NCBI GenBank assembly: GCA_018971305.1 | Contig: JAGXBC010000001.1 | Coordinates: 98,284 to 162,283, forward strand | Direction: 5' to 3' | Length of the DNA stretch: 64,000 nucleotides | From: Patescibacteria group bacterium | GTDB lineage: Bacteria > Patescibacteriota > Minisyncoccia > UBA6257 > 2-01-FULL-56-20 | Program-made: the position numbers and the translations under genes | The notes under the pieces: model-generated | Seen by the model: only the letters and a program-made list of their open reading frames with translations | The model's database searches: none | Told to the model about the DNA's origin: nothing | Shown: piece by piece, positions 39,479 to 59,731 of the stretch | Layout: each line of letters starts with the position of its first letter | Position numbering within the stretch: position 1 is the first letter of the stretch

Positions 39479-41200
39479 TTACATATCTTCTGTTTCTCGG
39501 ATAACCTCCTCTATAGTCACCAAACCATCAAGCGCCTTCAAGACACCGTCAGTCCTCATCGTCATCATCCCCTGGTCTTTGGCAACTTTGAATATTCTCT
39601 GCTGAGTGGGACCACTGCTTATCACCTCCTCCAGCTCCGGAGACATTTTTAATACCTCAAACAGGGCGCCGCGGCCGACGGTTCCTCGCCCCCTGCATTT
39701 AGGACAGCCTTTGCCGTGATATATCTTGTGGGGTTCTTTGTATTTAGATTGCAATTCTGGTGGTAAGTCGCTAAGAGCTTTATTAATGGCTTTTTCAATG
39801 GCCGGTGACGCAGCTTCGGCCTCTTTGCAGTCCTGGCAAAGCAAACCAACAAGTCTCTGCCCTATCATAAGATTAAGAGACACTGGCAAAAGAAATGGCT
39901 CTATCTTCATATCAAGCAAACGCGGAATAACACCAAGGGCGTTATTGGTGTGCAAGGTTGAAAGAACTATATGTCCGGTAAGAGCGGCCTGTACGCCAAG
40001 TCCGGCAGTTTCGTTATCACGGATCTCGCCGACCATAATAATGTCGGGGTCCTGGCGAAGAATCTGCCTCAAGCCCGAAGAAAAATCATAACCTATCTCC
40101 GGACGAACCTGCGACTGGTTTACTCCGGAAACAAAATACTCAACCGGATCTTCCAAGCTTACGATGTTAACGTTCTCTTTATTTAATATCTGCAACAGCG
40201 CGTAGATAGTGGTTGTTTTACCAGAACCCGTAGGCCCGGTGACAAGAATCATGCCGAACGGCTTATTAATCCCCTCCTTAACGATATCCAGGTTTGTATG
40301 TATCAATCCGAGATCGCTAAAGTCCTTTAAGCCAACAGTGGAATCCAGTACTCTGATAGCCACTTTTTCCCCAAGCGGCGTAGGGAAAGTTGAAACGCGG
40401 AAATCTATTTCCCTGTCAAAAACCCTGGAGCGGAATCTGCCGTCCTGCGGGATGCGATTTTCATCTATTTTCAAACTGGAAATAACCTTTATCCTTGAAA
40501 TTACCGGCTGAGACAACTCTAATGGCAACGAGGCAACTTCGCGCAAATCGCCGTCAACCCTGAATCTGATCCTCAAGTAACTCTCCTGCGGTTCAATATG
40601 AATATCCGAGGCCTTGGAAGAAATAGCTTCCTTAAAAGTATCGCCGACAATTCTAATTATCGGAGCCTCATCCCTGGAACCGCCCTCATCCAAACTTACG
40701 ATTTTTCTCCCGCCCTCTCCATGTTTAAGCCCTAGCGACTGGACAGCTCTTTCCACTTCTGAACGATAGGGGGAATATTTTCTGAGAACCGACTCCCAAT
40801 CCCCATAAGAGATAACATAAACCCCGAGGTTGAGATGACTTTGCCGCGCCACAAATTTTAGAGCATCCTGAGCCTTAGTGTCGTCCGGGTTCAACATGCC
40901 GACAACAAGCAAATTGTCTCTTCTGCTGATAGGTATAGAGCCGTAAGTTCTCGCCGTTTCTTCCGGAATCATATCCAAAATATCGCTGCTTATTGCCGCA
41001 GCATCAATTTTTTTGTAAGGAACATTCAATGTCACGCTCTTTAATCTTGCCAATTTCTCTTCATCAATCAGCCGGCGCCCGAAAATAATCGCCTCGGCCG
41101 AACGACCGGACAGTAAAGACTCGCGCCGCAGTTTAGTTACTGCCGGCTCATCTAACAGTTTGGCTCGTTGGATTTGTTTTAATAATTCGTCGTCTGACAT
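39479..41200 (-). CDS. pilB: Type IV pilus assembly (extension) ATPase, GspE family, with a C-terminal tetracysteine.
   Basis: 573 aa. Walker A is GPTGSGKTTT. A GSPII-like N-terminus and the Cys motif CQDC....CPKC. Confidence 0.85.
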   Translation of the reverse strand: MSDDELLKQIQRAKLLDEPAVTKLRRESLLSGRSAEAIIFGRRLIDEEKLARLKSVTLNVPYKKIDAAAISSDILDMIPEETARTYGSIPISRRDNLLVVGMLNPDDTKAQDALKFVARQSHLNLGVYVISYGDWESVLRKYSPYRSEVERAVQSLGLKHGEGGRKIVSLDEGGSRDEAPIIRIVGDTFKEAISSKASDIHIEPQESYLRIRFRVDGDLREVASLPLELSQPVISRIKVISSLKIDENRIPQDGRFRSRVFDREIDFRVSTFPTPLGEKVAIRVLDSTVGLKDFSDLGLIHTNLDIVKEGINKPFGMILVTGPTGSGKTTTIYALLQILNKENVNIVSLEDPVEYFVSGVNQSQVRPEIGYDFSSGLRQILRQDPDIIMVGEIRDNETAGLGVQAALTGHIVLSTLHTNNALGVIPRLLDMKIEPFLLPVSLNLMIGQRLVGLLCQDCKEAEAASPAIEKAINKALSDLPPELQSKYKEPHKIYHGKGCPKCRGRGTVGRGALFEVLKMSPELEEVISSGPTQQRIFKVAKDQGMMTMRTDGVLKALDGLVTIEEVIRETEDM

Positions 41201-41261
41201 TGCTTTTTAGTTAATTGACCTACGTTGCTTATAAAATTTGGGGTTGGCTATCGGATGCGAC

Positions 41262-41555
41262 TTACTGCACTGGTACAAAGGGATTATCGCGACCTGCATT
41301 ACCGGGAACCGGGGGAGCGACATATTGCTTTAAGGACTGAAAACTCTGGCTGTTTATTACGTCTTCGGGATTCAACTTTATTTTGGAGAGCGGATCAACG
41401 TTTTGGAAGTTAGCGGGAGCGGCTACTTCCACCAATTGAGGCTGATTGAAAAAGATGTAATAAACAGCCGCAACAATAATTCCAAGAACTGCAAGCCAGG
41501 TTATAATGCTCACTATATTTGTTTTGTTTTTTTCTTCTTCTAAAACTATAGCCAT
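41262..41555 (-). CDS. Small membrane protein in the pilus operon (PilP-like?).
   Basis: 97 aa with a single TM segment IITWLAVLGIIVAAVYYIFF. It sits between pilO and pilB. Confidence 0.4.
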   Translation of the reverse strand: MAIVLEEEKNKTNIVSIITWLAVLGIIVAAVYYIFFNQPQLVEVAAPANFQNVDPLSKIKLNPEDVINSQSFQSLKQYVAPPVPGNAGRDNPFVPVQ

Positions 41556-41591
41556 GTTAATTTATTTTGTTGTATATTTTATCACTCCGTA

Positions 41592-42200
41592 TCACTTGGT
41601 AATCTGATAATAGGTAACCAGGGATAAATTGTAATGATAGATAGGAATGGCCACTCCTTTGTCTGGAGGCGTCGGCTGGATACCCAAAGACTTCACGTCA
41701 AAAATTCTTATATTGGTTTCCAACATAGAAACAAATTTTTGGAAGTCGCTATACGAACCGCTGCCGGAGAGGTTTATATTAACCGATCCTACCGGTTTCT
41801 GCAGGGAGGACTGTGCTGATTTTTGGGCTGCCGGACCATACGCCGCGCCACCCGTGGAGCCAGAAGAAGAAAGACCTATAGAAGGTATTTCTATAGAACT
41901 GGCCTGAGTCAAACCATAAATTTGCACCAAGGCACCAGCCAAATCTTCTCCGTCGGGCAAGGCAGCAGAAACGACTTGCTGAACCTGACCCTGCCCTTGA
42001 TAAGCGCTTATCAAGGCTTGCACCTGCTGTATCGCATTTTTCTCAGAATTCAGGAATGCCTGCTTGCTTAGTTCGTCTGCTTTTATACTTTGGGCGTCTT
42101 GATATGCCGGCTGTATCAACTGAGAATAAATAACTATAGAAGCCACGAGAAAGAATAATCCCAGTATCAAACTTAGAAATCTTTTTGTTGGTTGTTTCAT
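41592..42200 (-). CDS. pilO: PilO-like pilus assembly protein.
   Basis: 202 aa with an N-terminal TM segment then coiled coil. Position between PilN and PilB. Confidence 0.5.
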   Translation of the reverse strand: MKQPTKRFLSLILGLFFLVASIVIYSQLIQPAYQDAQSIKADELSKQAFLNSEKNAIQQVQALISAYQGQGQVQQVVSAALPDGEDLAGALVQIYGLTQASSIEIPSIGLSSSGSTGGAAYGPAAQKSAQSSLQKPVGSVNINLSGSGSYSDFQKFVSMLETNIRIFDVKSLGIQPTPPDKGVAIPIYHYNLSLVTYYQITK

Positions 42201-42229
42201 TTTCCAATATTGATAGAGAACTTATAAGT

Positions 42230-42817
42230 TTATTTACCGGAAGAATTTACCGTGGAAGCGGAAAAGTACCCTCCGATAAATTTCAGGTCAACACTGAATT
42301 GCCAATTGTTGCCGCTACCGGAGACGCCATTGGTTTCCATACTTGTAAGTTCCGGCAAGGATTGGAAGATCGCCAATTGTTGTCCAACGTCCGCTACGGA
42401 CTTGGCTGTTCCCGATAAAGATACTTGACCCCCTTGTGAGTCTAGGCTGAAACTTGTCCAGTAAACATTGGTCTGGGTATTTTTACTAAGCCAGGAAAAG
42501 ATCCTGGAAGAGATAGTATGGTTGTCCAATAATTTTTTAAGGTTGGCTAACTGGGAATAGAATTGTATTATTTTCGCCTGCTGATCAAGTGGTATTTGCT
42601 GGCCAAAAGCTTGGATCTGGTCCTGTAATTGCTGAACCTGCGTATTCAAATAAGATTTATAGCCAAAAGCGAGTCCGAAATATATAAGCAGGCTAAAAAT
42701 AAAAACCGTGCTGGAAAACATTAAAAGCTGGCGAGACCAACCCGGGGTTTTGGGAGGCTCTCTGCCTATTTGCTCTAAAGCTTTTTGGGGTAGTGGCATG
42801 ATTATGGTAAATTTCAA
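42230..42817 (-). CDS. pilN: PilN-like pilus assembly protein.
   Basis: 195 aa with an N-terminal TM segment then a coiled coil (QVQQLQDQIQ). Directly downstream of pilM. Confidence 0.5.
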   Translation of the reverse strand: MKFTIIMPLPQKALEQIGREPPKTPGWSRQLLMFSSTVFIFSLLIYFGLAFGYKSYLNTQVQQLQDQIQAFGQQIPLDQQAKIIQFYSQLANLKKLLDNHTISSRIFSWLSKNTQTNVYWTSFSLDSQGGQVSLSGTAKSVADVGQQLAIFQSLPELTSMETNGVSGSGNNWQFSVDLKFIGGYFSASTVNSSGK

Positions 42818-42897
42818 TTTACATTTTTACAGTTCCCAGATGTCTCAAAAGGCAAATCGGGAATCGTTTAAAAATTGTAAATTAATGATCGGGGGAT

Positions 42898-43995
42898 TTA
42901 TGTGAACTCCCTAAGCGCTAATCCCAGTGCCACGCTCATTACTGGGCTTAACTCCGGAATTAATGGTTCAACGGCCAACGGATATTCAAATTTGGCAAAA
43001 GGGGCGGTTATGGCTATCGGTAATTTAAGCTCCTTTTCAAAATATTTTTCTATCCCCGGCAGGTTTGCTCCCCCGCCGGAAAGGATTATCCGCTCAGGAT
43101 TTGCAGCTTTGGGAAATTGGCCTCCGTATTTATAGAGTGCCTTTCTCACCTCATTAATTATAGCATCCAAAAAAGGCAACATTATTGTGGATAACTCGTA
43201 GTTTGGACCAGTTCCTATGACACCGCGTTCCTTCTTTAGCTCCTCGGCGCGCAAAGGGTTAATCCCCAAACTCACGGCTATAGCCTGCGTGAGAGACGAC
43301 CCGCCGAAATCATTCTGGGTAAAGAATTTAAGCTGGCCTTTTTCTAGAAATGTAATGCTTGTTGAGCGGCTGCCGATGTCTACTACCGCAGTAGGGGTCG
43401 GATCAACTCCCCCAAAAATCCTTGCCAGGCCCAGATTTTCAATTTCCAGGGCTTTAAGATGAAGTCCGGCAGCCTTAAAAATTTTCTGATACTTCTTTAT
43501 CTGTTCCTGCGGAACGGATATCAAAAGTATTTGGTTGTGATCAAAACCTTTATCGTCCCGATAATCCCCTACCTTCAGCCAATCCAGAGCGACTTCTGAT
43601 ATAGGCTGAGGTATATATTGCTTCGCTTCAAACACCAATGATTTTTCCAATTCACTTGGCTTCATAGCCGGAAAATCCAATACGGTCATAAAGGCTAAAA
43701 ATGGCGGCAGAGACGCAAGGGCTTCCGTAGTATCCGTCTTCATTTCCGCAACAACCATCTTTAAAAGATCAACAACTTCGTTATCAAAAAGTTTTAGCGA
43801 ACTTGTTTGTAGCGCCTGGTTAGCTCTCGCGAGATAACCGCTCGACTCCAAAATACCGTAATTAGTTATTTCCGGAGACTGCTTGCCCTGTTTTATGTCT
43901 GCTACCTTTATGGATGTAGTACCGATATCTACTGCCAAATAAGACGGGAAAACCTTCTGTTTAAAAAATTTAAAAAGGCCGAAGGGGTTGTTCAT
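42898..43995 (-). CDS. pilM: Type IV pilus assembly protein PilM (actin-like ATPase fold).
   Basis: 365 aa. N-terminus ...YLAVDIGTTSIKVA, an actin-fold phosphate-1 motif. First gene of the pil operon. Confidence 0.75.
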   Translation of the reverse strand: MNNPFGLFKFFKQKVFPSYLAVDIGTTSIKVADIKQGKQSPEITNYGILESSGYLARANQALQTSSLKLFDNEVVDLLKMVVAEMKTDTTEALASLPPFLAFMTVLDFPAMKPSELEKSLVFEAKQYIPQPISEVALDWLKVGDYRDDKGFDHNQILLISVPQEQIKKYQKIFKAAGLHLKALEIENLGLARIFGGVDPTPTAVVDIGSRSTSITFLEKGQLKFFTQNDFGGSSLTQAIAVSLGINPLRAEELKKERGVIGTGPNYELSTIMLPFLDAIINEVRKALYKYGGQFPKAANPERIILSGGGANLPGIEKYFEKELKLPIAITAPFAKFEYPLAVEPLIPELSPVMSVALGLALREFT

Positions 43996-44020
43996 TTCCC
44001 ATTAATTATACCACTATAAT

Positions 44021-44746
44021 TTGCCATTTGCCCCCGCTGCGCTTACATTATTGATAATGATCTTGGACGGACTTTTAGATATAATTTTCCCTTCGTATTG
44101 CGTGGGCTGCAATATTTATATTACCGGAGGAAAAACCATCTGTGAAAAATGTTTCGCGGGAATAAAAATAAACTCTGGGTTTTTTTGCGGCCGATGTTCT
44201 GCGCGCCTGCCCGTTGCGAAAAAAATCTGCCATCCAGACTTTCCCTATATTCTCGGTTCGGCCTCAAGTTATGATGACGAAAAAATAAAAAATCTTGTCC
44301 GTCTTTTGAAATTCAAATATATAAAAAAATCCGCCGAACCGCTTGCCGACCTGATTGTCCGTTATATTAGTGCAACAAACCTGGAAATAAAAAACTTTAC
44401 GGTGGTGCCGATTCCTCTTTCCAGGAAACGCCTGCGTGAGCGCGGATTCAACCAGGCGGAGTTAATAGCTGCGAAGATTGCCGAATATTTCGGACTTCCA
44501 TTGCGAACAGACATACTGCTCCGCCAGAAACACACGAAGCCGCAAAGTGAAACAAAAACATTGTATGAAAGAAAAAATAATGTTATCGGTTGCTTTGTTA
44601 TAAACAACTCCGAAAAACTCCTAAATGGAAACATATTACTGATAGACGACGTGACAACCTCTGGAGCGACACTACTCGCGGCAGCGGAAGCTCTGAAGCT
44701 CTGCGGCGCAAGAAAAATAATCGCGTTAACAGCGGCAAGGGCTTAA
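44021..44746 (+). CDS. comFC: ComF-family protein (competence, phosphoribosyltransferase domain, ComFC-like).
   Basis: The N-terminus has 4 Cys (CVGC...C..C). The C-terminus has a PRTase motif LLIDDVTTSGATL. Confidence 0.75.
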   Translation: MPFAPAALTLLIMILDGLLDIIFPSYCVGCNIYITGGKTICEKCFAGIKINSGFFCGRCSARLPVAKKICHPDFPYILGSASSYDDEKIKNLVRLLKFKYIKKSAEPLADLIVRYISATNLEIKNFTVVPIPLSRKRLRERGFNQAELIAAKIAEYFGLPLRTDILLRQKHTKPQSETKTLYERKNNVIGCFVINNSEKLLNGNILLIDDVTTSGATLLAAAEALKLCGARKIIALTAARA

Positions 44747-45286: not shown

Positions 45287-45358
45287 GCCCTCGTCGTTCA
45301 ACGGATAGGACGCAAGATTGCGGATCTTGTAATCGAGGTTCGATTCCTCGCGGGGGCA
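45287..45358 (+). tRNA. tRNA-Arg (anticodon GCG).
   Basis: GCCCTCG-TC-GTTC-AACGGATA-GGAC-G-CAAGA-TTGCGGA-TCTTG-TAAT-CGAGG-TTCGATT-CCTCG-CGGGGGC-A. Accessory DNA begins directly downstream. Confidence 0.75.
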
Positions 45359-45451
45359 CAAGCTAGTGAGACCCCTCTCGATACCGAGAGGGGTCGGTGC
45401 GTTGCCCAGCCTAAAATTGACAGAGGAAAAGGAAAGTAGAATATTTAATGC

Positions 45452-45988
45452 ATGCCAATTGGAAGCTCCTCAATTTCTTTATGGGGGATAGCCTCGTCAA
45501 TATTTGATCTTTACTGGACCGGCGAACTTATCTGGGCCGTAGTTATAATTGGGATAGCGACAATTCTTGCCTTCCGAGCGATTTACAGAAAAGAACGGAG
45601 ATTTATAAAAAACATTTCAAAAAGGTTTACTATTTTCTCGCTAACTAGCGTCAGCCTAGATGCCGAACTCGACCTTGTTAAACGGAGCGGATTATTCAAT
45701 GCGCCGGGTAAGATAGAAACGGATCAGCGAATTTTCGATGGCCTTGATAGAAATCAAGGCCTGCTCGTTCTTGCAATCGATGAAAAAACCAATGAACAGA
45801 CGTTCGAGCAAATTTACAGGAAAATAGAGGCATTGCGGAAGCCGGTGATCATCTACACCGCGGGCAACAGACAAATCCCTTGGCTGACTAGCGATTTACA
45901 CGCCTATTCTTTTTATACGATCGCAACGAGCCCCCTGAGATTGATGAGTGACATTTTTACAATCCTTTCCACATTCCCCAATGATTGA
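45452..45988 (+). CDS. Small two-TM protein with a ~110-aa C-terminal alpha/beta domain. Candidate membrane effector or sensor of the adjacent nucleotidyltransferase pair.
   Basis: 178 aa. TM helices at SLWGIASSIFDLYW and LIWAVVIIGIATILAF. The C-terminus has beta-alpha-beta-like segments (LLVLAIDE..., PVIIYTAG...). Its stop overlaps the start of the next gene. Confidence 0.5.
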   Translation: MPIGSSSISLWGIASSIFDLYWTGELIWAVVIIGIATILAFRAIYRKERRFIKNISKRFTIFSLTSVSLDAELDLVKRSGLFNAPGKIETDQRIFDGLDRNQGLLVLAIDEKTNEQTFEQIYRKIEALRKPVIIYTAGNRQIPWLTSDLHAYSFYTIATSPLRLMSDIFTILSTFPND

Positions 45989-47285
45989 GGAACTCCTCTC
46001 GCAATATATAAAGAAAACACTCTCGCCAGAAAGGAAAGAAAGGGAGAATGTTTCTGCTCGATATGAACAACTGCAAAAAATTTTCGGCGACTCAGCCGAA
46101 ATTTTTCAAATTGGTTCATACGTAAGATTTACGGCTATAAAACCAATTCACGATCTGGATGTAGTTTGGGTTTTGCCAGACGAAGTTCGCATCAAGAAAG
46201 CTATTAACCCAGAGAATTTCACTGCTAGTGGTGTTTTAGAAGAGTTGGCTCAGCAACTTGAAAATGAATACAAGAAAATTGGGGAGCGGCCATCAATTGA
46301 AGCTCAAACCCATTCCGTGGTGATTCGCTTTGGGAAAAATCTTGATTTTTCAATTGATGTGGTGCCTGCATTTAAAACGAAAGAAAAAAACGAATTTGGT
46401 TCTTTCATATATCTAGTTCCAGAAGGCGATCCCGTGCGCTGGATAAAATCAGATCCGCTCGGATATATTGAGGTTGCCAAGAAGTTAAACGAGAAAAACA
46501 ATTCCTTCAGGAAGATAACGAAATTTGTAAAAGGCTGGGAAAAATCACGTAGGAAAAATTACCCACTTATCGAACTGAAATCCTTCCATCTGGAAAACAT
46601 CGTCTCCGATCTGCTGCAGAAAAATCCTGACCTCAATTGCTACGAAGGCATCAAGAAGTTTTATCAGTCGCTCAGCGCATACCTGATTCCCCAACTCAGA
46701 GATCGCGCGGATGGCACCCGTTTTATCGATGATTATCTAAAAGACATTGACGCCTTCGATAAAAGAGAAATTGCAGAGCTTGCGCTTTTAGCTCAGAGGA
46801 CAATCTCAGAAATCGAATCATCGAGCGAAAAAGAAGACGTAATAAAGCTCAGCGAACGATTGGCGGATGCCAGTGATTTCGGCGAAGAATTTATTCAAAA
46901 ACAGGGAATCGCTTTCGTGCATAAAAAAGATTTACTTAAGTTGAGAGTTGACGGTCGAGTTACCGGAGAGGAAAGGAAGAGAGGCTCTTTCCGTGAATAT
47001 CTATTAAAAAATGCGGAGAATAGAGTTCGTGGCTTGGGAAGAAAAATTCATTATTATCTTTCCAATCCCAGAAACATTCCAGACGGTGCAGTGCTAAAAT
47101 GGAAGGTTAAAAATAGAATTAGTGACTATGCCAAGGAACATCCTCGAGGCGAAATCAGCAATCATGCCACAAAAAATGATCCGGAAGTCACGGCGTTTCG
47201 CGGGCAGCACTATGTGGATTGTTATCTCGTGAAAGATAGTAAAGTTCTAGGAATCGGGAGGCAATATTTGATTATTGAACTTTAA
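45981..47285 (+). CDS. cGAS/DncV/OAS-like nucleotidyltransferase (CD-NTase-like), paralog A.
   Basis: Pol-beta NTase catalytic motifs IGSYVRFTAIKPIHDLDVVWVL (GS...[DE]h[DE]h) and, downstream, FSIDVVPAF as the third acidic residue. A ~45-aa helical N-terminus and a large C-terminal helical domain. ~434 aa from MIEELL. Confidence 0.6.
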   Translation: MIEELLSQYIKKTLSPERKERENVSARYEQLQKIFGDSAEIFQIGSYVRFTAIKPIHDLDVVWVLPDEVRIKKAINPENFTASGVLEELAQQLENEYKKIGERPSIEAQTHSVVIRFGKNLDFSIDVVPAFKTKEKNEFGSFIYLVPEGDPVRWIKSDPLGYIEVAKKLNEKNNSFRKITKFVKGWEKSRRKNYPLIELKSFHLENIVSDLLQKNPDLNCYEGIKKFYQSLSAYLIPQLRDRADGTRFIDDYLKDIDAFDKREIAELALLAQRTISEIESSSEKEDVIKLSERLADASDFGEEFIQKQGIAFVHKKDLLKLRVDGRVTGEERKRGSFREYLLKNAENRVRGLGRKIHYYLSNPRNIPDGAVLKWKVKNRISDYAKEHPRGEISNHATKNDPEVTAFRGQHYVDCYLVKDSKVLGIGRQYLIIEL

Positions 47286-47291
47286 ACCACC

Positions 47292-48071
47292 ATGACGCAG
47301 GATCAGTATTTCGATTCGATTCTTGCGCGACACAACCCAGTTCCGCTCGGATTTTTTGGATCGCCCCTAAACATCGCTATTGATGCCTTAACTAAAGAAG
47401 CCCGAGCTTGGGGCGGGCACCACATTTCCAATATCGGTCTTTCCGGGTCATATGCGAAAGGGACCGCCATTTCCGGCCAGTCGGACGTAGATTTATTTAT
47501 TTCACTACACCACAACGTGATACAAGGAAACGTCACGCTCAAAGACGTGTATGAAAGCCTCTACAATTATCTGAAAAAATATGGCGCTCAAAAGCAAAAT
47601 GTTTCTCTGCATATAAAACATGGGAATGTCGAAATCGATCTAGTGCCCGCGGTCAGGCAGAACGTTTTGAGCAGCGACCATTCTTTGTGGAGTAATCGAA
47701 AACAAACCTGGCTGAAAACAAATGTTCTGACCCACATCAATACCATCAAATCTTCTGGGAGAAATAAGGAAATCCGAGCCACTAAAATATGGCGAAAACT
47801 TCATGGCTTAGATTTCCCTTCCCTCTACCTTGAACTTTCGGTTATCGAAGCACTTTCCAATCAGTACATCTTTTCTTTCCCTTCGCCAGCCGATAATTTT
47901 CTTAAGGTACTGGACTATTTTCAAGGTTCGTTTTTAACAGCGAAAGTTGTTGATCCCGCAAACACCAATAATGCAATTTCCGACGATCTAACTTTTCAGG
48001 AAAAGCAGAGCATAGCTCGCCAGGCAAAAATTTCCAGATCGCAACCAAACTGGAGCGGAATTATTTGGTAG
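47292..48071 (+). CDS. Minimal cGAS/OAS/SMODS-like nucleotidyltransferase, paralog B.
   Basis: LSGSYAKGTAISGQSDVDLFISL and VEIDLVPAV. The motif spacing matches paralog A. 259 aa. Confidence 0.55.
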   Translation: MTQDQYFDSILARHNPVPLGFFGSPLNIAIDALTKEARAWGGHHISNIGLSGSYAKGTAISGQSDVDLFISLHHNVIQGNVTLKDVYESLYNYLKKYGAQKQNVSLHIKHGNVEIDLVPAVRQNVLSSDHSLWSNRKQTWLKTNVLTHINTIKSSGRNKEIRATKIWRKLHGLDFPSLYLELSVIEALSNQYIFSFPSPADNFLKVLDYFQGSFLTAKVVDPANTNNAISDDLTFQEKQSIARQAKISRSQPNWSGIIW

Positions 48072-48102: not shown

Positions 48103-49452
48103 CTATGAATCCTTTGTTTTCGCGAGCGTCAGTTCTTTATCCTTCAACACGAGTTTGCTCTTCAGTGATTCCAAAATCTCACGTTTCTCAATAAGCGTCC
48201 CGGATTTTAGGATATGCTTCGCGTATGCCCGCAGGTTGAATTCTTGATCTTTCGTCTCATCCTCTTCTTCGCGGATACCCAGGATGTTTTTATTGAAGCT
48301 CCGGTGCCGCTCGATCTCATCCCGCAGTTTCTCCTTGATTGCAAGCTCGTTCAGGTCAATCGTATCCATAATGTCGACGAGCTGATGGAGCACGCCATCT
48401 TCCTTGATGTAGGTGTTCTTGCAGTGCCGATCTTTGCTCCGCGAGCAGAGATAATAGACGTGGCGATTCGTGCCGCCGCCCTTGAGCTTCTTGAATTTCT
48501 CCATGGCAGTGATGCCCGATCCACAGGGACCACACGATATCAGATTGGTGAATGCCCACTCCTTTGCTTCACCACGCACATATTTATCCCGTGTGACGCG
48601 CTCGCGCGTTTTCTCGAAGAGTTCTCTTGTAATGAGGGCCTTATGCTGCCCGGTATACCAGTTGCCGCTCTTTCTCGGATATTCGAAGATGCCGTAGTAA
48701 AAAGTGTTTTCAAGGATAGTATAAATATTTCCTATTGAGAGATACTTGCCGTTTTTCGTTTTGAAATTTAGATCGAATCTGAGCCAATGGTAGAGCTTCA
48801 CGCCCGACCATTGTTCGTTCCCGATCTTCTCGAACATCTGCCGGATGACAGGAGCTCGTTCCGGATCGACGAGCAGCTGACACTTCCGATCCAGGCGCTT
48901 TTCCGACAAGTATCCTGTTGGCGTCGATGACGGCCATAGCCCCATCTCACAGCGCGTCCGCAGTCCTCGTTTCACATTTTCCGATTTGTTGTCGTTTTCG
49001 AGTTTCGCTTGGGAGCAAAGGATCATCAACAGGAATTTCTCGTTCGGCGAATTCTTGAAATTCTGCGTGTACGTCCTTATCTCTATGAGAAGCTTCTGAT
49101 CCATAAGGTCAACCAAGCTGCCGAGATCTCCAGCGTTTCTGCTTAACCGATCTGCTGCCCACGTGAGGATGCCCGTGTACCTTCCGCTCCGTAGGTCACG
49201 GATGATGTCGTTGAACACGGGGCGGGTGCCCGAGTCTTTCGCCGAGTGGGCCTCGCGCCGGATGTCCACGATCTCGAGCGTATCCCGTTCGGCGATCCGC
49301 AACATCTCCTTTACCTGTGAATCGATAGAAAGGGCTTGCTTCTCATCCTGTTCGGTTGATTTCCTCGCGTAGAGCACGTATTTGACCTTTTCCGGCTGCT
49401 GGACGCTCGTGGGGGCCCCAGCTGCCATCAGCCCCATGGTTTGGTTGGTCAT
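48103..49452 (-). CDS. Large serine recombinase (integrase).
   Basis: 449 aa. N-terminal resolvase catalytic domain (YARKSTEQDEKQALSIDSQ with the Ser nucleophile, LTWAADRLSRN), a recombinase domain, and a zinc-ribbon C-x2-C...C-x2-C region. Confidence 0.8.
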   Translation of the reverse strand: MTNQTMGLMAAGAPTSVQQPEKVKYVLYARKSTEQDEKQALSIDSQVKEMLRIAERDTLEIVDIRREAHSAKDSGTRPVFNDIIRDLRSGRYTGILTWAADRLSRNAGDLGSLVDLMDQKLLIEIRTYTQNFKNSPNEKFLLMILCSQAKLENDNKSENVKRGLRTRCEMGLWPSSTPTGYLSEKRLDRKCQLLVDPERAPVIRQMFEKIGNEQWSGVKLYHWLRFDLNFKTKNGKYLSIGNIYTILENTFYYGIFEYPRKSGNWYTGQHKALITRELFEKTRERVTRDKYVRGEAKEWAFTNLISCGPCGSGITAMEKFKKLKGGGTNRHVYYLCSRSKDRHCKNTYIKEDGVLHQLVDIMDTIDLNELAIKEKLRDEIERHRSFNKNILGIREEEDETKDQEFNLRAYAKHILKSGTLIEKREILESLKSKLVLKDKELTLAKTKDS

Positions 49453-49574
49453 ACCCTAAGGGATGACGCGATCTCCCTAGAAAGTCCAGACCTTCAAAGG
49501 CCGCCGAAACGCTCGTTTAATGCTTCCCCAGATTGTGCCACTCTCGCTATTAGCCGGGAGGTGGATTAAAATCG

Positions 49575-50291
49575 TTAGACCATTTTTTGCATTAGCAATT
49601 GTGTCGCAATGTTGAAATATAAATATTCCTCCTTGGATAGTGCTTCGTTGTGCTGAATCCTATTACGATACTCTGCTAATTCCGCAAGTTTTCCGGCAAT
49701 CACAAATGTGCTAGGAAATCTACCTCTAAACAAATCACGATTATTCTTGTCGCCCATAATATGGGAGAAATCTTTAATTCCTGCCGCTGAAAAAAGCTCT
49801 TCTGGGTGGCCACCTGGCTTCCACGAAGCATGCCTCGATTTCCAATATTGCGTTTTAAGTATTTCGTATGTCGTTTCATCCAGATGCTTCTCCCAACTAC
49901 TGCCGTAGACATCTTCAAAAACATCGGCGTACAATTTTCTCAACGCTTCTTCGAGTAATCGAATGTTCTTTCTTGCGGTAGTCAACCTTGTTAGCTCAAA
50001 AGGATCTATCTGTATAGCAGCCTTTTTTCGCAAGACAATCGGTTCGTCTCCAGGTAGCCTTTTCCCCCAAAAGACATCGCCATCTTCATCAATCTCCTTT
50101 TTTAAGACACCCTTTCGATACATAGATTTCAAAGCGATAAGCACAGCGCCCTTCTTCTTATCTCCGGCCTTCGCTATGCCATGTTTTTTCCTCGCAATGG
50201 CAGAGAGGAGGGTTTCTTGAGAAACCCATTCCTTATCAAACATCTCTATCTTAATCAATTCTTGATAGTTAGTAGCCATTATACGGTCCAC
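49575..50291 (-). CDS. HEPN-domain protein (Swt1/Abi-like).
   Basis: 238 aa with a C-terminal R-x4-H motif (RNRIQHNE), the HEPN RNase signature. It overlaps the upstream gene by 13 nt. Confidence 0.5.
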   Translation of the reverse strand: MDRIMATNYQELIKIEMFDKEWVSQETLLSAIARKKHGIAKAGDKKKGAVLIALKSMYRKGVLKKEIDEDGDVFWGKRLPGDEPIVLRKKAAIQIDPFELTRLTTARKNIRLLEEALRKLYADVFEDVYGSSWEKHLDETTYEILKTQYWKSRHASWKPGGHPEELFSAAGIKDFSHIMGDKNNRDLFRGRFPSTFVIAGKLAELAEYRNRIQHNEALSKEEYLYFNIATQLLMQKMV

Positions 50292-50791
50292 GCGAATTTT
50301 TTGATTCGACCTGGGTGTTTAACAGATGACGCGACATATAGATATCTAAAACCCCTAGATCCAGGGCACACGCTCTTGCAAAGATTGACCGAATCTAGCA
50401 GCTTTCGCTCACCCTTTTTCCCTTCCTTATAGGTTGTTACAAAAAGACGGAACTCGGCGATGCCAACCGTGAGCTTCCGAAAATCTTTTAATATATTATC
50501 ATCGTCATTCTGCCTTTCAATCTCGGAGATTAATTTTAATCCCTTTAGATCCCGCCAGTTTTTCCCGAGATCAGCCCAACAAAGATCGAAAAGCCATTCA
50601 CCACTATCGGTATTAAGTTTTTTGGGACCGGATGCAAAAACTTTGTAGTCAAGTTTGTGCCCTAGATTGGTCAAAGACTTCTTTATTGAAAAAGTCCAGG
50701 CCGCCGAGCTTTCCCTATTCTCGTTTTTGCGTCCAGCATGCCGAATCACAGCTACCATTTTATCTTCTATTGGGAAAGAATTTGTAGGCAT
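50279..50791 (-). CDS. Hypothetical protein, co-transcribed partner of the HEPN protein.
   Basis: 170-aa ORF that overlaps the HEPN gene start. Confidence 0.4.
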   Translation of the reverse strand: MPTNSFPIEDKMVAVIRHAGRKNENRESSAAWTFSIKKSLTNLGHKLDYKVFASGPKKLNTDSGEWLFDLCWADLGKNWRDLKGLKLISEIERQNDDDNILKDFRKLTVGIAEFRLFVTTYKEGKKGERKLLDSVNLCKSVCPGSRGFRYLYVASSVKHPGRIKKFAWTV

Positions 50792-50803
50792 GAGGCTAAG
50801 GGT

Positions 50804-51199
50804 TTATAAAAGCCGTGCCGCTGCTTGCACGCTTTTGTCAAAGTTTTTATCGAACTGATGTTCCCAAAATCTGGTTACCCGCCAACCCTTACTTCTCAAT
50901 GCTCGGTTTACGATTTTCGCTCGCTCCTTATTGCCGCGAATTTTTTTCTGCCAATAGCTCCGTTGTGATTTTGGCATTCTACAGTGCCACCTACAGCCGT
51001 GCCAAAAGCACGAATCGAGAAAAATAACCGACTTTTTTCTCTTGGAAACGATGTCCGGCTTTCCAATTAAACTCGCGTGTTGCTGAAACGACTTTCCTTG
51101 TTTCTTCAGGGCTTTGACGATCCCTCTTTCGAGTCTAGTATTCTCGGAACGAATGAGAGACATCACCCCTGAGCGTTGCTTCTTAGTTAGGGTGTCCAT
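50804..51199 (-). CDS. vsr: Very-short-patch repair endonuclease.
   Basis: 131 aa with the Vsr signature IFLDSCFWHGC and a downstream His. Confidence 0.8.
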   Translation of the reverse strand: MDTLTKKQRSGVMSLIRSENTRLERGIVKALKKQGKSFQQHASLIGKPDIVSKRKKSVIFLDSCFWHGCRWHCRMPKSQRSYWQKKIRGNKERAKIVNRALRSKGWRVTRFWEHQFDKNFDKSVQAAARLL

Positions 51200-51202
51200 A
51201 AA

Positions 51203-51712
51203 TTAGGTGCTAAAAACAGTTTTCGTCTGCGAAATGAGATCTTGACTCAAGATGAGATACCAAGCTCGCATCCTCTTTTGCCACTTCCGAAATTTCAGGA
51301 ATTGATCCCATGTAATCTCGATGACTTTCTTGGGTTGGTAGGTCTTATCGATCAAGACAACGATAACGTATTCAAATTTTTTCTCAGGCTGCTGTTCGTC
51401 TTGATCCCCGCAACCATAGAACACACCCGTGACATTCCCTGGTTCAGAGATCGTCTTAACGCTGTAGCGCTCTCCCTTTCTGCTCAACGCATCCACGTTT
51501 TGCGTTCCTTCAGGAGCCGCCTGGAGTTTCGGCAAACTCGGCACTTCATTGTAAATTTTTATTGCCAAAAATTCTCCTCGCTCGCCGACGATGTTCCGCG
51601 TTCTCACTAATCCGCGCTCTTTCAATTTAAGTCCTATATAGGGATAGATGGTCCACATCTCCTCATCGGATAGATTATTAATCTCCCTTTCGAGATCTTC
51701 AATTTTAGGCAT
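51203..51712 (-). CDS. Hypothetical protein between dcm and vsr (possible nuclease or specificity component). The start is set at an internal ATG to give an 8-nt overlap with the dcm stop.
   Basis: The ORF is open from 51847, but upstream of 51712 it would overlap dcm by 142 nt. Confidence 0.4.
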   Translation of the reverse strand: MPKIEDLEREINNLSDEEMWTIYPYIGLKLKERGLVRTRNIVGERGEFLAIKIYNEVPSLPKLQAAPEGTQNVDALSRKGERYSVKTISEPGNVTGVFYGCGDQDEQQPEKKFEYVIVVLIDKTYQPKKVIEITWDQFLKFRKWQKRMRAWYLILSQDLISQTKTVFST

Positions 51713-52934
51713 TGGATTGTCGTTTCCGCTTCGCGGCCAAAACGCGTTCTCCGAAATGTTCTGCAAAGACTTTTGCCAATAAAGGCGGCACCGCGTTCCC
51801 AACGTGTTTTTGTTGCGTATCCATCTTTCCGTAAAAAACGAAGTCATCGTCGAATGATTGAAAGCGAGCCGCTTCTCTCACTGTGATAGCGCGATTGCTT
51901 TCGTAATGCAGGAAGCGGCCGGATCCCGGATTCAGAAAGTGAGCGGTGATAGTTTGGGCTATACCGTCGCGATGCAAACGGCCATAAGCTTGACTGAAAT
52001 ATTCCTGATCTCGCTTTCGATCAAAGCGGCTATTCTTGGGTAAATCTTTATTACTCGACCCCTCTTCGATTTTGTTGATTTTTATCAAGAAGTCTTCTCC
52101 GTGGGATCGTGCCACGTGGTTACAAAGAATCTTTGCTCGTTGCCTGCGGGATGCTTGGTAATCCGTAAATGGGGCGGCGGCATACCCGGTCGCTTCTTGG
52201 CCAGCCTCAATACGCGGTAAGTCGCCGATGGCATCCTCCACAGAAATATACGGCGTTAAAATAGTTCCGAAATCATCCAAGGCAACTTCTTCCAAAATGT
52301 CCTTCGCAAAAGGCAATTTCTTATATCGTAACGGAGGAAAGTCGAGCGGTACGTCGGCAGCATACTTATTTTGAACCGCTGCTATGAGTAAGCGCTTTCT
52401 GAGCTGTGGAACTCCGTAATCATGCGCGATGACCACCTGCATATTTGAGCTATAGCCCATTTTTTCAAGCTCCTCTCGGATCTCGACGATAAATTTGCCC
52501 TTTGCGTATGATGCTGCATTTGGGACGTTTTCGATAAGGACGAAGATGGGTTTCAGCAATCCGACAAAGCGCAAGAATTCTTTCATCAACCTATTGCGCG
52601 GATCGTTGATAATGCGGTCGGATCTATTGGCGGTGAGCGCGGAGAATCCTTGGCATGGCGGTCCACCAACTAGGAAATCGAGTTCTGCCCCGCCGTTTAG
52701 CAGAGCGTTCTTGCGCAATGTTTTCTCATCAAGTTTTCCGATATCGGCCCAGAGGTAAGGCACTGATGGCCTATTTCTCTTGAAGGTAGTGATTGCGTCA
52801 GCATCATGATCGACCAATAAGACTGGTTGGAGTCCCCAATCTTTCGGTAAAAGCGCTTTGCAAAATCCTTCCGTTATACCTCCGACGCCAGCGAATAGGT
52901 CTATGAACGTAAGGGTATGCGCTTCTCTTTTCAT
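51705..52934 (-). CDS. dcm: DNA (cytosine-5)-methyltransferase.
   Basis: 409 aa. Motif I is DLFAGVGG, motif IV is GGPPCQGFS, motif VI is ENV. Confidence 0.9.
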   Translation of the reverse strand: MKREAHTLTFIDLFAGVGGITEGFCKALLPKDWGLQPVLLVDHDADAITTFKRNRPSVPYLWADIGKLDEKTLRKNALLNGGAELDFLVGGPPCQGFSALTANRSDRIINDPRNRLMKEFLRFVGLLKPIFVLIENVPNAASYAKGKFIVEIREELEKMGYSSNMQVVIAHDYGVPQLRKRLLIAAVQNKYAADVPLDFPPLRYKKLPFAKDILEEVALDDFGTILTPYISVEDAIGDLPRIEAGQEATGYAAAPFTDYQASRRQRAKILCNHVARSHGEDFLIKINKIEEGSSNKDLPKNSRFDRKRDQEYFSQAYGRLHRDGIAQTITAHFLNPGSGRFLHYESNRAITVREAARFQSFDDDFVFYGKMDTQQKHVGNAVPPLLAKVFAEHFGERVLAAKRKRQSNA

Positions 52935-54820
52935 AGTTGATTGTTTGGTTCTATTACTTCGTTACTTTTAGATGCCGCCGCAGCTTTCGCGGTTATTTTT
53001 CCGTTAGAGACAAATTTTTCATGGAAAAGAAATGGCTCGAGTTCCTTCGTCGCAGAGTCATGCAATCGCTTGGAAACCTCGTCGAATTTATTGTCGATCT
53101 CGTCGGCGGTTAATTGGGTTCCCCGTTTTTCCATCTCGTGCACGGTTTGCTTCAAAATGATGTCCACGTATCTTTGAAACATATACTCGCGCCACCGAAC
53201 ATGTTCCGTCCCGTAATCCTCGCGGATTTTATGCGCGAGCGGGGCCTGAGTATTAATCCAATACACATTGTGTTCGTAGTCGGCACGGCGCTGATAAACA
53301 AGAGGGTGGCGTGCGTCGCAGTTTACCGTATTGCCCGGACTAAGCGGATCATCGTCAGAGTTAGAAAGGAGAACAAGCGGAAATTTATGGCCTTTGCTTT
53401 TTTGATCTCCAGAACCACTTCCTTCGGTCGTCGATCCGCCATCGCCCTCAGTCTCTCCCTTGCCCATCCCCGCTCCTTGTCCTTCTCGCAGTCCGCCCGC
53501 ATCTCCTGGGTTTGTGCCCGCAAAGATTTCTCCATAAACTTGCGACATAAAACCATTTTTCCATCGGTTCAGAAAATCGTTAAATATCGAGGTGTTCTTA
53601 AGATCAATCTGTTGCTGCTCGAGCTTGGTCCGCTCAACCATTTTATCGGTTAGATCGTTTATTCGTTCGCAAATCCACCAAAGTAGAGCGTCTGTAAGTT
53701 CGGTTTTGGCGAGATGTTCTCGGTCATTCAGCACCAGGTCATTATCAGGGTCCTCTAGAATGGGACACTCACACTCGCCGTATACAAATTCGGTCATTTC
53801 GGAGTTCCGCAAAGCCCCTCCCAGCTCGCTGATCTTATATGACGCGATAATGCCAATATCTTTGCTTTTAAAGTTGATGCAATTGAGCGCGGCGCGATCC
53901 CCGTATCGGTTAAAAGGTTCCTCTGAGGTGAAGAGGGTCAATCCTCCCTTCGGAAATTTTTCGTTAGCTAATGCCACATATTCCTTGCCATACGGCAATT
54001 GCTCTGGAATTTCAAAGGTTACGGGATCTTCGAATCCAAACTTCGGCTTTATAACCTCCGGCTCGAGACGCATGAGATCGCCATTGTCCAGCACACCGTA
54101 CACCAATTTCGTTTGCACGATATTTCGCGCCTGAGGATGAACCCGCAAGCGGTACAGTAAGTTGTTATATTTTCTCATCCCGACATTTTCCGGCTTGGTG
54201 CCACTAATCACAGTGAAGCGGATGTCCTTAAGACGGAATCGTTCCTGAAGCGCGTCCGTTTCGGGGAGTTTCAAAAGCTGGGGGATCAAATCAGCGATGC
54301 CAGCTATCTTGAATGCTTCTTCCGGTTTTACTTTTTTATCTTCAAATCCATTTAAGAAGCCATAGTCTTTGTCCTCGTCGAATCCAAAGATGTTCAGATG
54401 ACCATTGCGATACGTGATGAATCGGCTCGTCTGAAACATCTGGCGCATATAGAATTTTCCGCCGTTTCCATGTCCGCCGTACGTTTTCAACTCTTTCAGC
54501 CCCTGCTTTGCAGCCATGCGATCGAACCAGCGAGCGAAATTATCGTTGATGACCTTGTGTGTTGTTCCTGAAAAATCTATACATTCGAAACGAATTGGGT
54601 CTGTTTTGGTCTTGCTTCGGAACCGAACCACAATGACTTGCTCGGAATCTGGAATGTGAATTTTCTGCGCGGCCCCGTCCCTTAAGTAAGCGTCAACAGA
54701 GTTTTTGAGCCATTCCGCGAGCCCCTTTACATGATCGAATCTGAAGCTCTTGCCAAACATGTCAAGCGCGCTCTTCGCGTCTATGACGGCTTCGATCTTA
54801 TTGATCTTGGGATTTTTCAT
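52931..54820 (-). CDS. GHKL-superfamily (histidine-kinase/MutL/MORC-like) ATPase with a long C-terminal region.
   Basis: An N-box-like AEWLKNSVDAY, a G1/G2-like NGDLM...G.G, and a C-terminal Gly/acidic low-complexity linker. ~629 aa from an internal ATG. The ORF is open to 54883, but that would overlap the upstream gene by 62 nt. Confidence 0.55.
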   Translation of the reverse strand: MKNPKINKIEAVIDAKSALDMFGKSFRFDHVKGLAEWLKNSVDAYLRDGAAQKIHIPDSEQVIVVRFRSKTKTDPIRFECIDFSGTTHKVINDNFARWFDRMAAKQGLKELKTYGGHGNGGKFYMRQMFQTSRFITYRNGHLNIFGFDEDKDYGFLNGFEDKKVKPEEAFKIAGIADLIPQLLKLPETDALQERFRLKDIRFTVISGTKPENVGMRKYNNLLYRLRVHPQARNIVQTKLVYGVLDNGDLMRLEPEVIKPKFGFEDPVTFEIPEQLPYGKEYVALANEKFPKGGLTLFTSEEPFNRYGDRAALNCINFKSKDIGIIASYKISELGGALRNSEMTEFVYGECECPILEDPDNDLVLNDREHLAKTELTDALLWWICERINDLTDKMVERTKLEQQQIDLKNTSIFNDFLNRWKNGFMSQVYGEIFAGTNPGDAGGLREGQGAGMGKGETEGDGGSTTEGSGSGDQKSKGHKFPLVLLSNSDDDPLSPGNTVNCDARHPLVYQRRADYEHNVYWINTQAPLAHKIREDYGTEHVRWREYMFQRYVDIILKQTVHEMEKRGTQLTADEIDNKFDEVSKRLHDSATKELEPFLFHEKFVSNGKITAKAAAASKSNEVIEPNNQL

Positions 54821-54821
54821 G

Positions 54822-55424
54822 TTATTTTTGGGGGATGATAGTTTTAAATTTTTCATCAGTAAGTAAATATTTATTAAGATCATTCAAGATTTTAAACCGA
54901 GGATTGCCCGAAAAGATGCGTCGAGCGTTTTCGATCGCGGAGCTGATGACCGCAATACGACCCAAAAATTCGTTTTTGCCAGTTCGAACCGTCACGCTGT
55001 AAAACGCGTAGATGTCGCTATCCAAAATTTTCTCCTTTTCGCCGCCTTCATAAAGCTTGAAGGCGTCTGATTGAAATAATTTATCGGCTTCTGCCTGCTC
55101 GTCTCTGCCGAGCCGCTCTGTTCGAGTTTTCTCCACCTGGTCGCCGCTAATTTTTGAGACGAGAGGCCCAATGTAAGCAAGGCCATGTTCAGTAAGCGAA
55201 AAGAATTTATTTGCCGTTCTAATAAAACCCTTGCTTTTCAAAGGTCCATAAAGTGGCTTATGAATATCCGAAGAATCGGGGTATTCGTAACCGCGCAGAC
55301 TGAAATCCTCTGGAAATTTTTTCCACACCGCGACAACGATGTCCTCGTATTTAAGGGGCTTCGTCGATCCCTGCGATAGGTCGTACATAGCAACTAGTAT
55401 TTTGTCGCGAACTGATAACGCCAT
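54822..55424 (-). CDS. Hypothetical protein (possible wHTH), first large gene of the GHKL-Dcm-Vsr cassette.
   Basis: 200-aa ORF with translational coupling to the GHKL gene. Confidence 0.4.
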   Translation of the reverse strand: MALSVRDKILVAMYDLSQGSTKPLKYEDIVVAVWKKFPEDFSLRGYEYPDSSDIHKPLYGPLKSKGFIRTANKFFSLTEHGLAYIGPLVSKISGDQVEKTRTERLGRDEQAEADKLFQSDAFKLYEGGEKEKILDSDIYAFYSVTVRTGKNEFLGRIAVISSAIENARRIFSGNPRFKILNDLNKYLLTDEKFKTIIPQK

Positions 55425-56962: not shown

Positions 56963-57685
56963 CTATTTCGGCCGCGGTCCTTGCCACGATGGCCGATAAC
57001 CATCTTTCGGCACCTCGAGGCGCGGAACGGGCGCAAAGACCTGCGGGGTCACTGTGATCGTACCGCTGTCGCTCGGCGGGTTCGTTGGGTTCGCCCTCGG
57101 CAGGAGATCGATTGGCTTAGTCGTGTCATTCGAACGTGGCGCAGGCGGCGCCGATTCGGTTGCCGGTAGCTCCTGCGATGACGTGCCCGAGGGATCGCTC
57201 TTTGCGCCGCCCGCGATGATCCCGCGCAACGCCGCCGGAATCGGTTTCGCCTTCGGCGCCGGGATGCTGATCCTCGGCAATGCCGTGCCTGATGGCGATG
57301 ACGATTCCTGCCTGCCCGCTTCCGCTTGGGCATCAGCGGGAGGCTTCGCGCCTTGGCCGGCACTTGCGCTTGCAGAGGCCGACTGCCGCAAGAGCAGCGG
57401 GTTCACTTCGTCCCGCATCTCCCATGTCGGCATGCCAATGGCGAGGGCGATGTCGTTGTAGGGAATATCCACGGTAAAAGGGTCCGGAGCGATATCCGTC
57501 TTCGGGTCGGTGCTGACCGCTTGGATGTCGAGGTGCCTCGTCGGCGGTTCTTGCGCCGTTGTTGTAACCTCCGGTTGCTCCGCTTCCGCTTCACTTGCGG
57601 CAACTGCCTGAGCTTTACCGCCTATGAGCCATTCGCCGAACCGAACAAAGAAGCGTCCGGCCAAATTCAATATGTTGTTAAACAT
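56963..57685 (-). CDS. Hypothetical Ala/Pro-rich protein at the distal end of the GC-rich phage-like segment.
   Basis: 240-aa ORF in a ~60% GC region. Low-complexity sequence. Confidence 0.4.
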   Translation of the reverse strand: MFNNILNLAGRFFVRFGEWLIGGKAQAVAASEAEAEQPEVTTTAQEPPTRHLDIQAVSTDPKTDIAPDPFTVDIPYNDIALAIGMPTWEMRDEVNPLLLRQSASASASAGQGAKPPADAQAEAGRQESSSPSGTALPRISIPAPKAKPIPAALRGIIAGGAKSDPSGTSSQELPATESAPPAPRSNDTTKPIDLLPRANPTNPPSDSGTITVTPQVFAPVPRLEVPKDGYRPSWQGPRPK

Positions 57686-57699
57686 GATTGAAAATATAA

Positions 57700-59322: not shown

Positions 59323-59326
59323 GTTT

Positions 59327-59731
59327 TTATTTTTGGATCATGAGGTTTATGTAATTTGCGGGGAATCCTGCTAAGCGGAGCGCTTCGCGAAGGAGTTCGA
59401 CTTCTTCGGGAGTCAACTCTTCGCGCAGATCAACGGTCCCTGAAAGCTCCAGCCGGTTGCGGTACTCGTCCTTGTTGTTCTTGAGCCAAAAAATGGCTGC
59501 ATTCAGTTTCCCTTGTTTGATCGCCTGGATAATTTGACTCTCCGCCGCGTCGTTCACGAGGTTCTTGCCGTCGAGCTGCGCTTCGTCGGCCTCCTTCGCG
59601 AACGCGGGGTCCTCCTGCTTGCGGCGGTAGAACGTCCGCCTGCTGATGCCCGCCTTCGCGCACGCCGACTCTATGACCGGCGACCTCCGCAGCGCGTCGA
59701 GAATGATTTGTTTTTCTTCGTCGCGGGTCAT
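59327..59731 (-). CDS. Phage terminase small subunit-like DNA-binding protein. The start is set at an internal ATG, and the ORF is open to 59869.
   Basis: MTRDEEKQIILDALRR...GISRRTFYRRKQ is an HTH. It abuts terL, and its start overlaps the stop of the upstream gene at 59731. Confidence 0.55.
   Translation of the reverse strand: MTRDEEKQIILDALRRSPVIESACAKAGISRRTFYRRKQEDPAFAKEADEAQLDGKNLVNDAAESQIIQAIKQGKLNAAIFWLKNNKDEYRNRLELSGTVDLREELTPEEVELLREALRLAGFPANYINLMIQK

Follow-up and report, generated by a model that had tools for sequence, protein, structure and literature searches.

The operon described here lies in a 64,000-nucleotide stretch of a Patescibacteria group bacterium (assembly GCA_018971305.1, contig JAGXBC010000001.1, positions 98,284 to 162,283), hereafter the window, and consists of three genes, A, B and C, which encode a predicted membrane effector followed by two cGAS/DncV-like nucleotidyltransferases (CD-NTases). 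The closest described systems are found among the cyclic-oligonucleotide-based antiphage signalling systems (CBASS) and the type III CRISPR loci. Type I CBASS, a class that is said to follow an earlier classification of these systems, combine a cyclase with an effector, usually with one cyclase per operon, and have no Cap2, Cap3 or HORMA genes. In the CdnC and CdnD systems of E. coli MS115-1 and P. aeruginosa the effector is NucC, and the two cyclases reportedly make cyclic tri-AMP (cA3). NucC is a cA3-activated nuclease common to CBASS and type III CRISPR (PMC11229360). About 40% of Type I operons carry a fusion of the cyclase with an AGS-C domain, and phage-challenge work suggests that the choice of phages sensed is influenced by this domain (bioRxiv 10.1101/2023.05.21.541620). 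Cam2, which occurs in 26 type III CRISPR loci, sometimes beside NucC or SAVED-CHAT, has a transmembrane (TM) region of variable length and a REC-like domain that was overlaid on 3lua, and its predicted role is that of a membrane effector activated by cA3 (Hoikkala et al. 2024, PMC11229360). Cam1, Csx23 and Cap15 follow a similar plan, each being a small protein in which a cytoplasmic cyclic-nucleotide sensor is joined to N-terminal TM helices and which defends by membrane depolarisation or disruption.

Compared with these systems, the operon is by its gene content a Type I CBASS and hence of a known kind. The original prediction had proposed an undescribed kind of module, which does not agree with this assignment, as the operon has what defines Type I, and AGS-C fusions are common among Type I systems (bioRxiv 10.1101/2023.05.21.541620). 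With Type I systems that combine a CD-NTase-AGS-C fusion and a TM effector it shares the restriction to cyclase and effector genes, the fusion itself, a small membrane effector and a location in a defence island. It departs from them in having two cyclases behind one effector, the second being of another subfamily, in the sensor of A, which is REC-like rather than a Cap15 β-barrel, SAVED or SLATT, and, with respect to the Type I panel, in its host, a member of the Patescibacteria or candidate phyla radiation (CPR). CdnC and CdnD are the best matches in the PDB for B (by sequence) and for C (by structure), though at a sequence identity of only 15-20% in the Foldseek alignments of C, and relatives of B and C pair with NucC, from which the same messenger is inferred; unlike the CdnC/CdnD-NucC systems, the operon lacks HORMA and TRIP13 and has a membrane protein instead of a nuclease as its effector. 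The likeness to Cam2 lies in the N-terminal TM helical region of A, in its C-terminal REC-fold domain, which has no partner histidine kinase, in the proximity of A homologues to Cas10 and in the predicted role as a cA3 sensor that perturbs the membrane. However, A is accompanied by CD-NTases instead of Cas10, and no cas genes lie near the operon in the window. A also resembles Cam1, Csx23 and Cap15 in general plan, but Cam1 senses through a CARF domain, Csx23 through a unique tetrameric one and Cap15 through a β-barrel, and none of the three is among the fold-search matches of A.

The Type I class, the SMODS and SMODS-AGS-C enzymes and the logic of TM effectors are thus already known. What looks new is the sharing of one effector by two cyclases of different subfamilies in one operon, and the use of a Cam2-like TM-REC effector in CBASS. 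No published CBASS operon with two cyclases or CD-NTases was found in the literature searched, which covered only part of the CBASS literature, so that a precedent is possible. Nor was Cam2 found in a CBASS context in the same literature, where the sole paper with both terms treats Cam2 as CRISPR-associated.

The reading that we favour, with a confidence a little above even, is that the operon would be a two-input, one-output Type I CBASS, in which two independent cyclase sensors share one messenger and one membrane effector. B and C would each be switched on by an infection cue of its own, independently of the other, and both would make the same cyclic oligonucleotide, most likely cA3. Binding of cA3 to the cytoplasmic REC-like pseudo-receiver domain of A would cause A to oligomerise or to rearrange its N-terminal helices, and the resulting membrane damage or depolarisation would abort the infection.

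The three genes and their products

A, B and C form one tightly packed, operon-like unit. Calls of open reading frames (ORFs) confirm all three genes on the plus strand with the positions and sizes originally given for them (Table 1), and the proposal of a single operon stands as well. The stop of A and the start of B lie within ATGATTGA, an overlap of 8 nt, and C begins 6 nt after B. The N-terminus of B, counted from its ATG, aligns with homologues. The genes are probably co-translated, with B translationally coupled to A through the overlap. As had been noticed from the sequence, the unit contains no accessory genes, its flanks being a tRNA-Arg and a serine recombinase gene, and no matches to E1, E2, JAB, HORMA or TRIP13 were found among the operon neighbours; it is the absence of Cap2, Cap3, HORMA and TRIP13 genes that places the operon in Type I. 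The whole of A-B-C is present and 100% identical in three independent read-set (Logan) assemblies of the same strain.

Both B and C are CD-NTases with intact active sites. Families of this class dominate the profile searches for both enzymes and the structure search for C, SMODS and PADLOC cyclase profiles match both, and the best NCBIfam matches of both are CBASS cyclase models, with scores below the equivalog cut-offs. Current annotation tools therefore recognise both cyclases. Identity with an aminoglycoside or lincosamide nucleotidyltransferase (ANT), or with a housekeeping Pol-β enzyme, is ruled out by the CD-NTase profiles, the fold of C and the catalytic residues, and no ANT family is among the Pfam, NCBIfam, PDB and Foldseek matches of B and C. 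The catalytic motifs quoted in the original prediction are confirmed by reading out the residues and by alignments of 15 members of each family, in which G45, S46, D58xD60 and D126 of B and G52, S53, D65xD67 and D116 of C are invariant.

B is a full-length SMODS enzyme (residues 7-170, Pfam 7.9e-16) with a C-terminal Ig-like AGS-C domain (residues 319-429, Pfam AGS_C 1.5e-13), both matches being above the gathering threshold, and it keeps every family-invariant residue. Its match to the PADLOC 'oligonucleotide-cyclase' model PDLC00785 (6.3e-91) ends at model position 441 of 443. The closest solved structures by sequence are CdnD of P. aeruginosa (1.7e-10), to which residues 11-231 of B align, and CdnC of E. 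coli MS115-1 (1.8e-7); the bilobed fold of B is a prediction from sequence only. C matches Pfam SMODS (2.4e-9) above the gathering threshold and the PADLOC cyclase model PDLC00803 over its full length (1.4e-78, positions 1-253 of 253). Its AlphaFold model has a mean confidence score (pLDDT) of 88, and Foldseek aligns this model to CdnC (6u7b, 2.4e-12) and to CdnD (6p82, template-modelling score 0.77-0.78 over ~280 columns), with template-modelling scores of 0.73-0.78 for the two structures overall. As the model superposes on CdnC and CdnD and all 40 of the top 40 Foldseek matches are CD-NTases, C is predicted to be a complete, minimal CD-NTase with both lobes.

The two enzymes had been described as paralogs with identical motif spacing. 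Membership of the same superfamily is borne out, and the distance from the GS motif to the DxD motif is 13 residues in both, but DxD and the third aspartate are 66 residues apart in B and 49 apart in C. The identity between the two enzymes is no more than 24% (E 2e-4), while their closest relatives in other genomes are 45% identical to B and 65% identical to C, respectively. Sequence comparison thus indicates that they belong to different CD-NTase subfamilies and do not stem from a recent or local duplication.

A had been predicted to be an effector-like protein with two TM helices and a small C-terminal α/β domain. The fold search bears out the α/β domain, which is REC-like with a predicted three-layer α/β fold, and the effector-like character agrees with the membrane helix region and with matches to accessory models of type III CRISPR in PADLOC, namely C3a59, 'trans-membrane' (3.5e-14), and Mem_04 (7.9e-5), the latter described as a 2TM plus globular protein of type III CRISPR operons. 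The number of helices is less clear. One TM helix is evident at residues ~26-44 and is followed by a basic juxtamembrane stretch, RKERRF, whereas the second hydrophobic segment, 15 residues long (8-22), is weak and AlphaFold gives a single long helix from residue 10 to 55. Neither a SAVED nor a β-barrel sensor is indicated by Pfam or PADLOC matches, so that A lacks a sensor of the Cap15 or Cap14 type. By its features, a TM region and a REC-like domain, A may be called Cam2-like, a comparison of features and not of sequence with the published Cam2 family. The conserved residues of A include R93, K124, T136 and R163. The A family is small, with 146 clusters (50% identity) out of 1.84 billion representatives, and was not found in the viral contigs of IMG/VR or in plasmids. 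The idea that the 3' end of A was derived from a B-partnered operon, on account of its 'STFP' tail, was rejected, as STFP is the family consensus and 'STHA' is the derived form in the clade of L001 and L007.

Partners of related effectors and cyclases

Related loci show which partners the effector and the cyclases have elsewhere. The survey of the A family yielded more than 20 contigs; since several of them represent the same locus, the distinct loci number 17. The neighbours fall into three classes, Cas10/RAMP genes, a single B-like cyclase or a single C-like cyclase (Table 1), and two cyclases behind the effector were found in none of the 17. The survey for other dual-cyclase operons was small, the metagenome scan adding 2 loci and the viral scans for B and C 2 each. 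Since its members adjoin either Cas10/RAMP genes or a single CD-NTase, the A family is best understood, from its gene neighbourhoods, as a family of nucleotide-signalling effectors. In a bootstrapped neighbour-joining tree the CRISPR-linked effectors form one clade apart from the CBASS-linked members.

The partners of CBASS-linked effectors vary. B-like cyclases at three A-family loci (L012, L014, L015) are 37-39% identical to B. At one of these (L015:5977-8215) the genes after a TM-REC effector encode a 336-aa SMODS cyclase that lacks AGS-C and then a Cap2-like E2, so that A-family effectors appear to serve E2-only CBASS as well. The effectors of L013, which has a C-type partner, and L004, which has an AGS-C partner, are 59% identical, and those of L022, with a C-type partner, and L015, with its B-like partner and E2, are 48% identical, each pair with a bootstrap of 100. 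As close relatives have thus switched partners of different types, the kinds of cyclase seem to be interchangeable for an A-family effector. The sister group of A in the window consists of effectors (55-61% identity) whose genes lie immediately next to that of a C-type cyclase (59-65% identity to C), overlapping it by 4 nt or leaving a gap of 8 nt, with no B between. For this reason the simplest history looks to be an insertion of B into an ancestral A-C pair, and the GC content at third codon positions (GC3), which is lower in B (0.39 vs 0.46-0.47), fits the insertion weakly.

Some further observations concern these loci. Cyanobacterial and other homologues of A lie directly beside Cas10/RAMP genes, in L019 also near an RT-Cas1 fusion, and the CRISPR-linked members come mainly from Nostocales. 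The L018 effector has a full-length match to PADLOC C3a59 (1.8e-43) and a weak one to a CBASS '1TM' effector model. In L001-L003 the A-C pair is followed by a 263-aa protein (L001:7326-8117) without a Pfam or PADLOC match, which is absent from L007 and L036 and may be accessory or unrelated.

The messenger is suggested by the partners of the cyclases. The nearest relatives of B (44-45% identity) adjoin DUF6602 proteins, and C-family cyclases also pair with DUF6602 (L027, L032, L033 and plasmids L038-L040), such pairs being found on viral contigs as well as on plasmids of rhizobia, Caballeronia and Paenibacillus. In PADLOC the DUF6602 proteins score as NucC (6.6e-85 to 8.7e-104). A 324-kb metagenome contig of 34% GC (L027:4260-9839) carries, separated by 2 kb, two complete CBASS pairs of the NucC type: in one, NucC accompanies a SMODS-AGS-C cyclase with 45% identity to B, in the other a C-family cyclase, and the two NucCs are 35% identical; this is a second co-occurrence of the B-type and C-type subfamilies. 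Since both subfamilies use NucC, both use the A family, Cas10 uses the A family too, and CdnC and CdnD are the closest structural relatives, the shared messenger would most likely be cA3.

Mechanism and competing explanations

Several points weigh against two cyclases feeding one effector. Each step of the mechanism is derived from sequence and from relatives. The dual-cyclase arrangement is found in this one strain only, and because all copies are 100% identical there is no independent sign that selection maintains A-B-C, nor any informative variation for an analysis of dN/dS. The A protein of the window may recognise no product other than that of C, with which it was ancestrally paired. The assignment of cA3 depends on what relatives with no more than 39-47% identity are paired with, and a few substitutions can change the product specificity of a CD-NTase. 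The model and the hydrophobicity of A are ambiguous between one and two TM helices, and its place among Cam2 proteins is a match of features, compared by published description only.

The chief rival, which we judge unlikely although it deserves serious weight, is an evolutionary accident. B would be left over from a second CBASS that lost its effector, for instance NucC, and would have landed between A and C, so that only C signals to A; B would be orphaned, merely redundant or decaying, and the architecture would have no special function. The occurrence in one strain against 17 distinct related loci, the grouping of A with C-partnered effectors and the slightly different GC3 of B would all be expected from such an event, and a recombinase-bearing defence island is a place where genes are shuffled. 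A decaying B, however, is hard to reconcile with a full-length enzyme in which all family-invariant residues, including the catalytic ones, are kept, and a gene that is coupled to A by an 8-nt overlap and ends 6 nt before C has a layout that seldom arises from random insertion. The nearest relatives of B do use NucC and not the A family, but A-family effectors elsewhere work with the B-like cyclases mentioned above, and effectors and kinds of cyclase have been swapped repeatedly.

The remaining alternatives give B and C different tasks. In the original prediction the two enzymes were a heteromeric or sequential synthase, of two products or of one that needs both, which would make a new type of CBASS. 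The tight linkage and probable co-translation of the genes, the two intact active sites and the closeness of B-type and C-type cyclases in L027, which lie within 2 kb of each other, agree with this idea, which we nevertheless place among the least probable: in L027 each cyclase has its own NucC, so that two complete systems are present, in every related locus examined the A-family effector has a single cyclase of either kind, each kind stands alone with the same effector families (A family, NucC) in all other loci examined, and interdependent CD-NTases are not described in the literature searched. Interdependence taken more broadly, for example with B and C as a heteromer whose C subunit is gated by the AGS-C domain of B, or with a synthesis in two steps, is likewise highly doubtful. 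If it were true, the operon would integrate two infection cues or produce a messenger beyond the reach of either enzyme by itself, which would be a new CBASS architecture, and the receiver-fold domain would be a cyclic-oligonucleotide receptor common to CBASS and type III CRISPR. It is also quite improbable that there are two messengers, with C making the activator of A, and B another nucleotide whose target lies elsewhere in the genome, or which antagonises or regulates A. The low identity of B and C and the different distances from DxD to the third aspartate would suit two products, and the product diversity of CD-NTases is said to be large; yet two effector families, one of them the cA3-activated NucC, recur as partners of relatives of both cyclases, effector orthologues swap between the kinds of cyclase, and the operon has no gene for a second candidate receptor.

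If both cyclases feed A, as in the two-sensor reading that we prefer, the operon would be a compact natural example of the diversification of CBASS inputs, with two sensors, one messenger and one killer. The activating signal of CD-NTases is a central open question of the field, and here one cyclase with AGS-C and one without it would form a matched pair with the same read-out. The use of a Cam2-like TM-REC protein both by Cas10 and by CD-NTases with NucC-partnered relatives lends independent genomic support to the predicted binding of cA3 by the receiver fold. The soluble domains of the A family (~120 residues) are small and tractable for work on REC-domain cA3 sensing, and the main use of the operon may be as a natural test bed for this and for infection sensing by CD-NTases. 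CPR/Patescibacteria, a group whose immunity has received little study, are the source of most CBASS-linked A-family members, found in metagenome-assembled genomes (L004, L011-L013, L022 and the window) of Saccharibacteria, Parcubacteria and Kaiserbacteria.

Island setting and other features of the window

The operon stands in a mobile defence island beside a tRNA, as indicated by the tRNA-Arg upstream and by recombinase, Swt1-like HEPN, Vsr, restriction and methyltransferase genes downstream. The tRNA-Arg is the left edge of this island. Position 45323, inside the tRNA, is the start base of the contig in all three Logan assemblies, and this shared break might reflect branching of the assembly graph at a conserved tRNA, or else a junction where the island varies. 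To delimit the island, the window was searched for an att repeat, a second direct copy of the 3' half of the tRNA, and none was found. The serine recombinase gene is convergent with the operon and directly downstream of C; it is likely the mobility gene of the island and lies outside the signalling module. A-family operons in L001, L004 and L009 are likewise flanked by serine recombinases. The minus-strand genes of the island (48103-54883) encode, besides the recombinase, a Swt1-like HEPN protein (238 aa), a 170-aa protein without assignment, Vsr, a protein resembling methyl-directed type II restriction enzymes (214 aa, PADLOC 4.6e-55), a 5-methylcytosine (m5C) methyltransferase and a 650-aa protein without a family match.

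Table 1. Features of the operon, its surroundings and the related loci
Feature	Position	Strand	Details
tRNA-Arg (GCG)	45287-45359	+	ARAGORN; Rfam tRNA 58.4 bits
Stem-loop	45370-45395	+	Perfect 11-bp stem, 4-nt loop; between tRNA-Arg and gene A
Sigma-70-like promoter match	45417-45445	+	TTGACA-17-AATATT, 10/12; 7 nt upstream of the ATG of A; consensus match alone
Gene A	45452-45988	+	178 aa; predicted membrane effector, Cam2-like
A, N-terminal hydrophobic region	45473-45583	+	Residues ~8-44
A, REC-like pseudo-receiver domain	45617-45979	+	Residues ~56-176; predicted
Gene B	45981-47285	+	434 aa; ATG at 45981; CD-NTase (SMODS) fused to AGS-C
B, AGS-C domain	46935-47267	+	Ig-like
Gene C	47292-48071	+	259 aa; predicted minimal CD-NTase, both lobes
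Large serine recombinase	48103-49452	-	Pfam Resolvase 2.2e-20, Recombinase 2e-12, Zn_ribbon_recom 5.9e-8
A family beside Cas10/RAMP type III CRISPR genes	~5800-6560 in each locus		L010, L016-L019, L021
A family with single SMODS-AGS-C or B-like cyclase			L004-6/L011, L009, L012, L014, L023, also L015
A family with single C-like 259-aa cyclase			L001-3, L007/8/L036, L013, L022, L037

Promoter matches such as that before A are not more numerous in the region than in shuffled sequences. The stem-loop reads GACCCCTCTCG ATAC CGAGAGGGGTC and has no T-run, and the RNA fold of 45360-45455 has a minimum free energy of -30.1 kcal/mol (z = -3.1). The hairpin could be a terminator or processing element of the tRNA, or a recombination site. 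In a search for regulatory RNA near the operon, Rfam matched the tRNA alone.

Just upstream of the island is a type IV pilus/competence cluster (39479-44746) with a PilB-like ATPase, PilM/N/O-like proteins and a ComF-like phosphoribosyltransferase; ComF alone is confirmed by Pfam, the other members being read from the sequence. Positions 57000-61000 have a GC content of 0.55-0.60 against ~0.45 elsewhere and are possibly a separate foreign segment, with a type II methyltransferase-like gene (59731-61065) and several ORFs without a defence-family match. ARAGORN also calls a tRNA at 5036-5108, adjoining a tRNA-Arg(TCG), whose 'anticodon' has two bases (gc) and to which it assigns no type.

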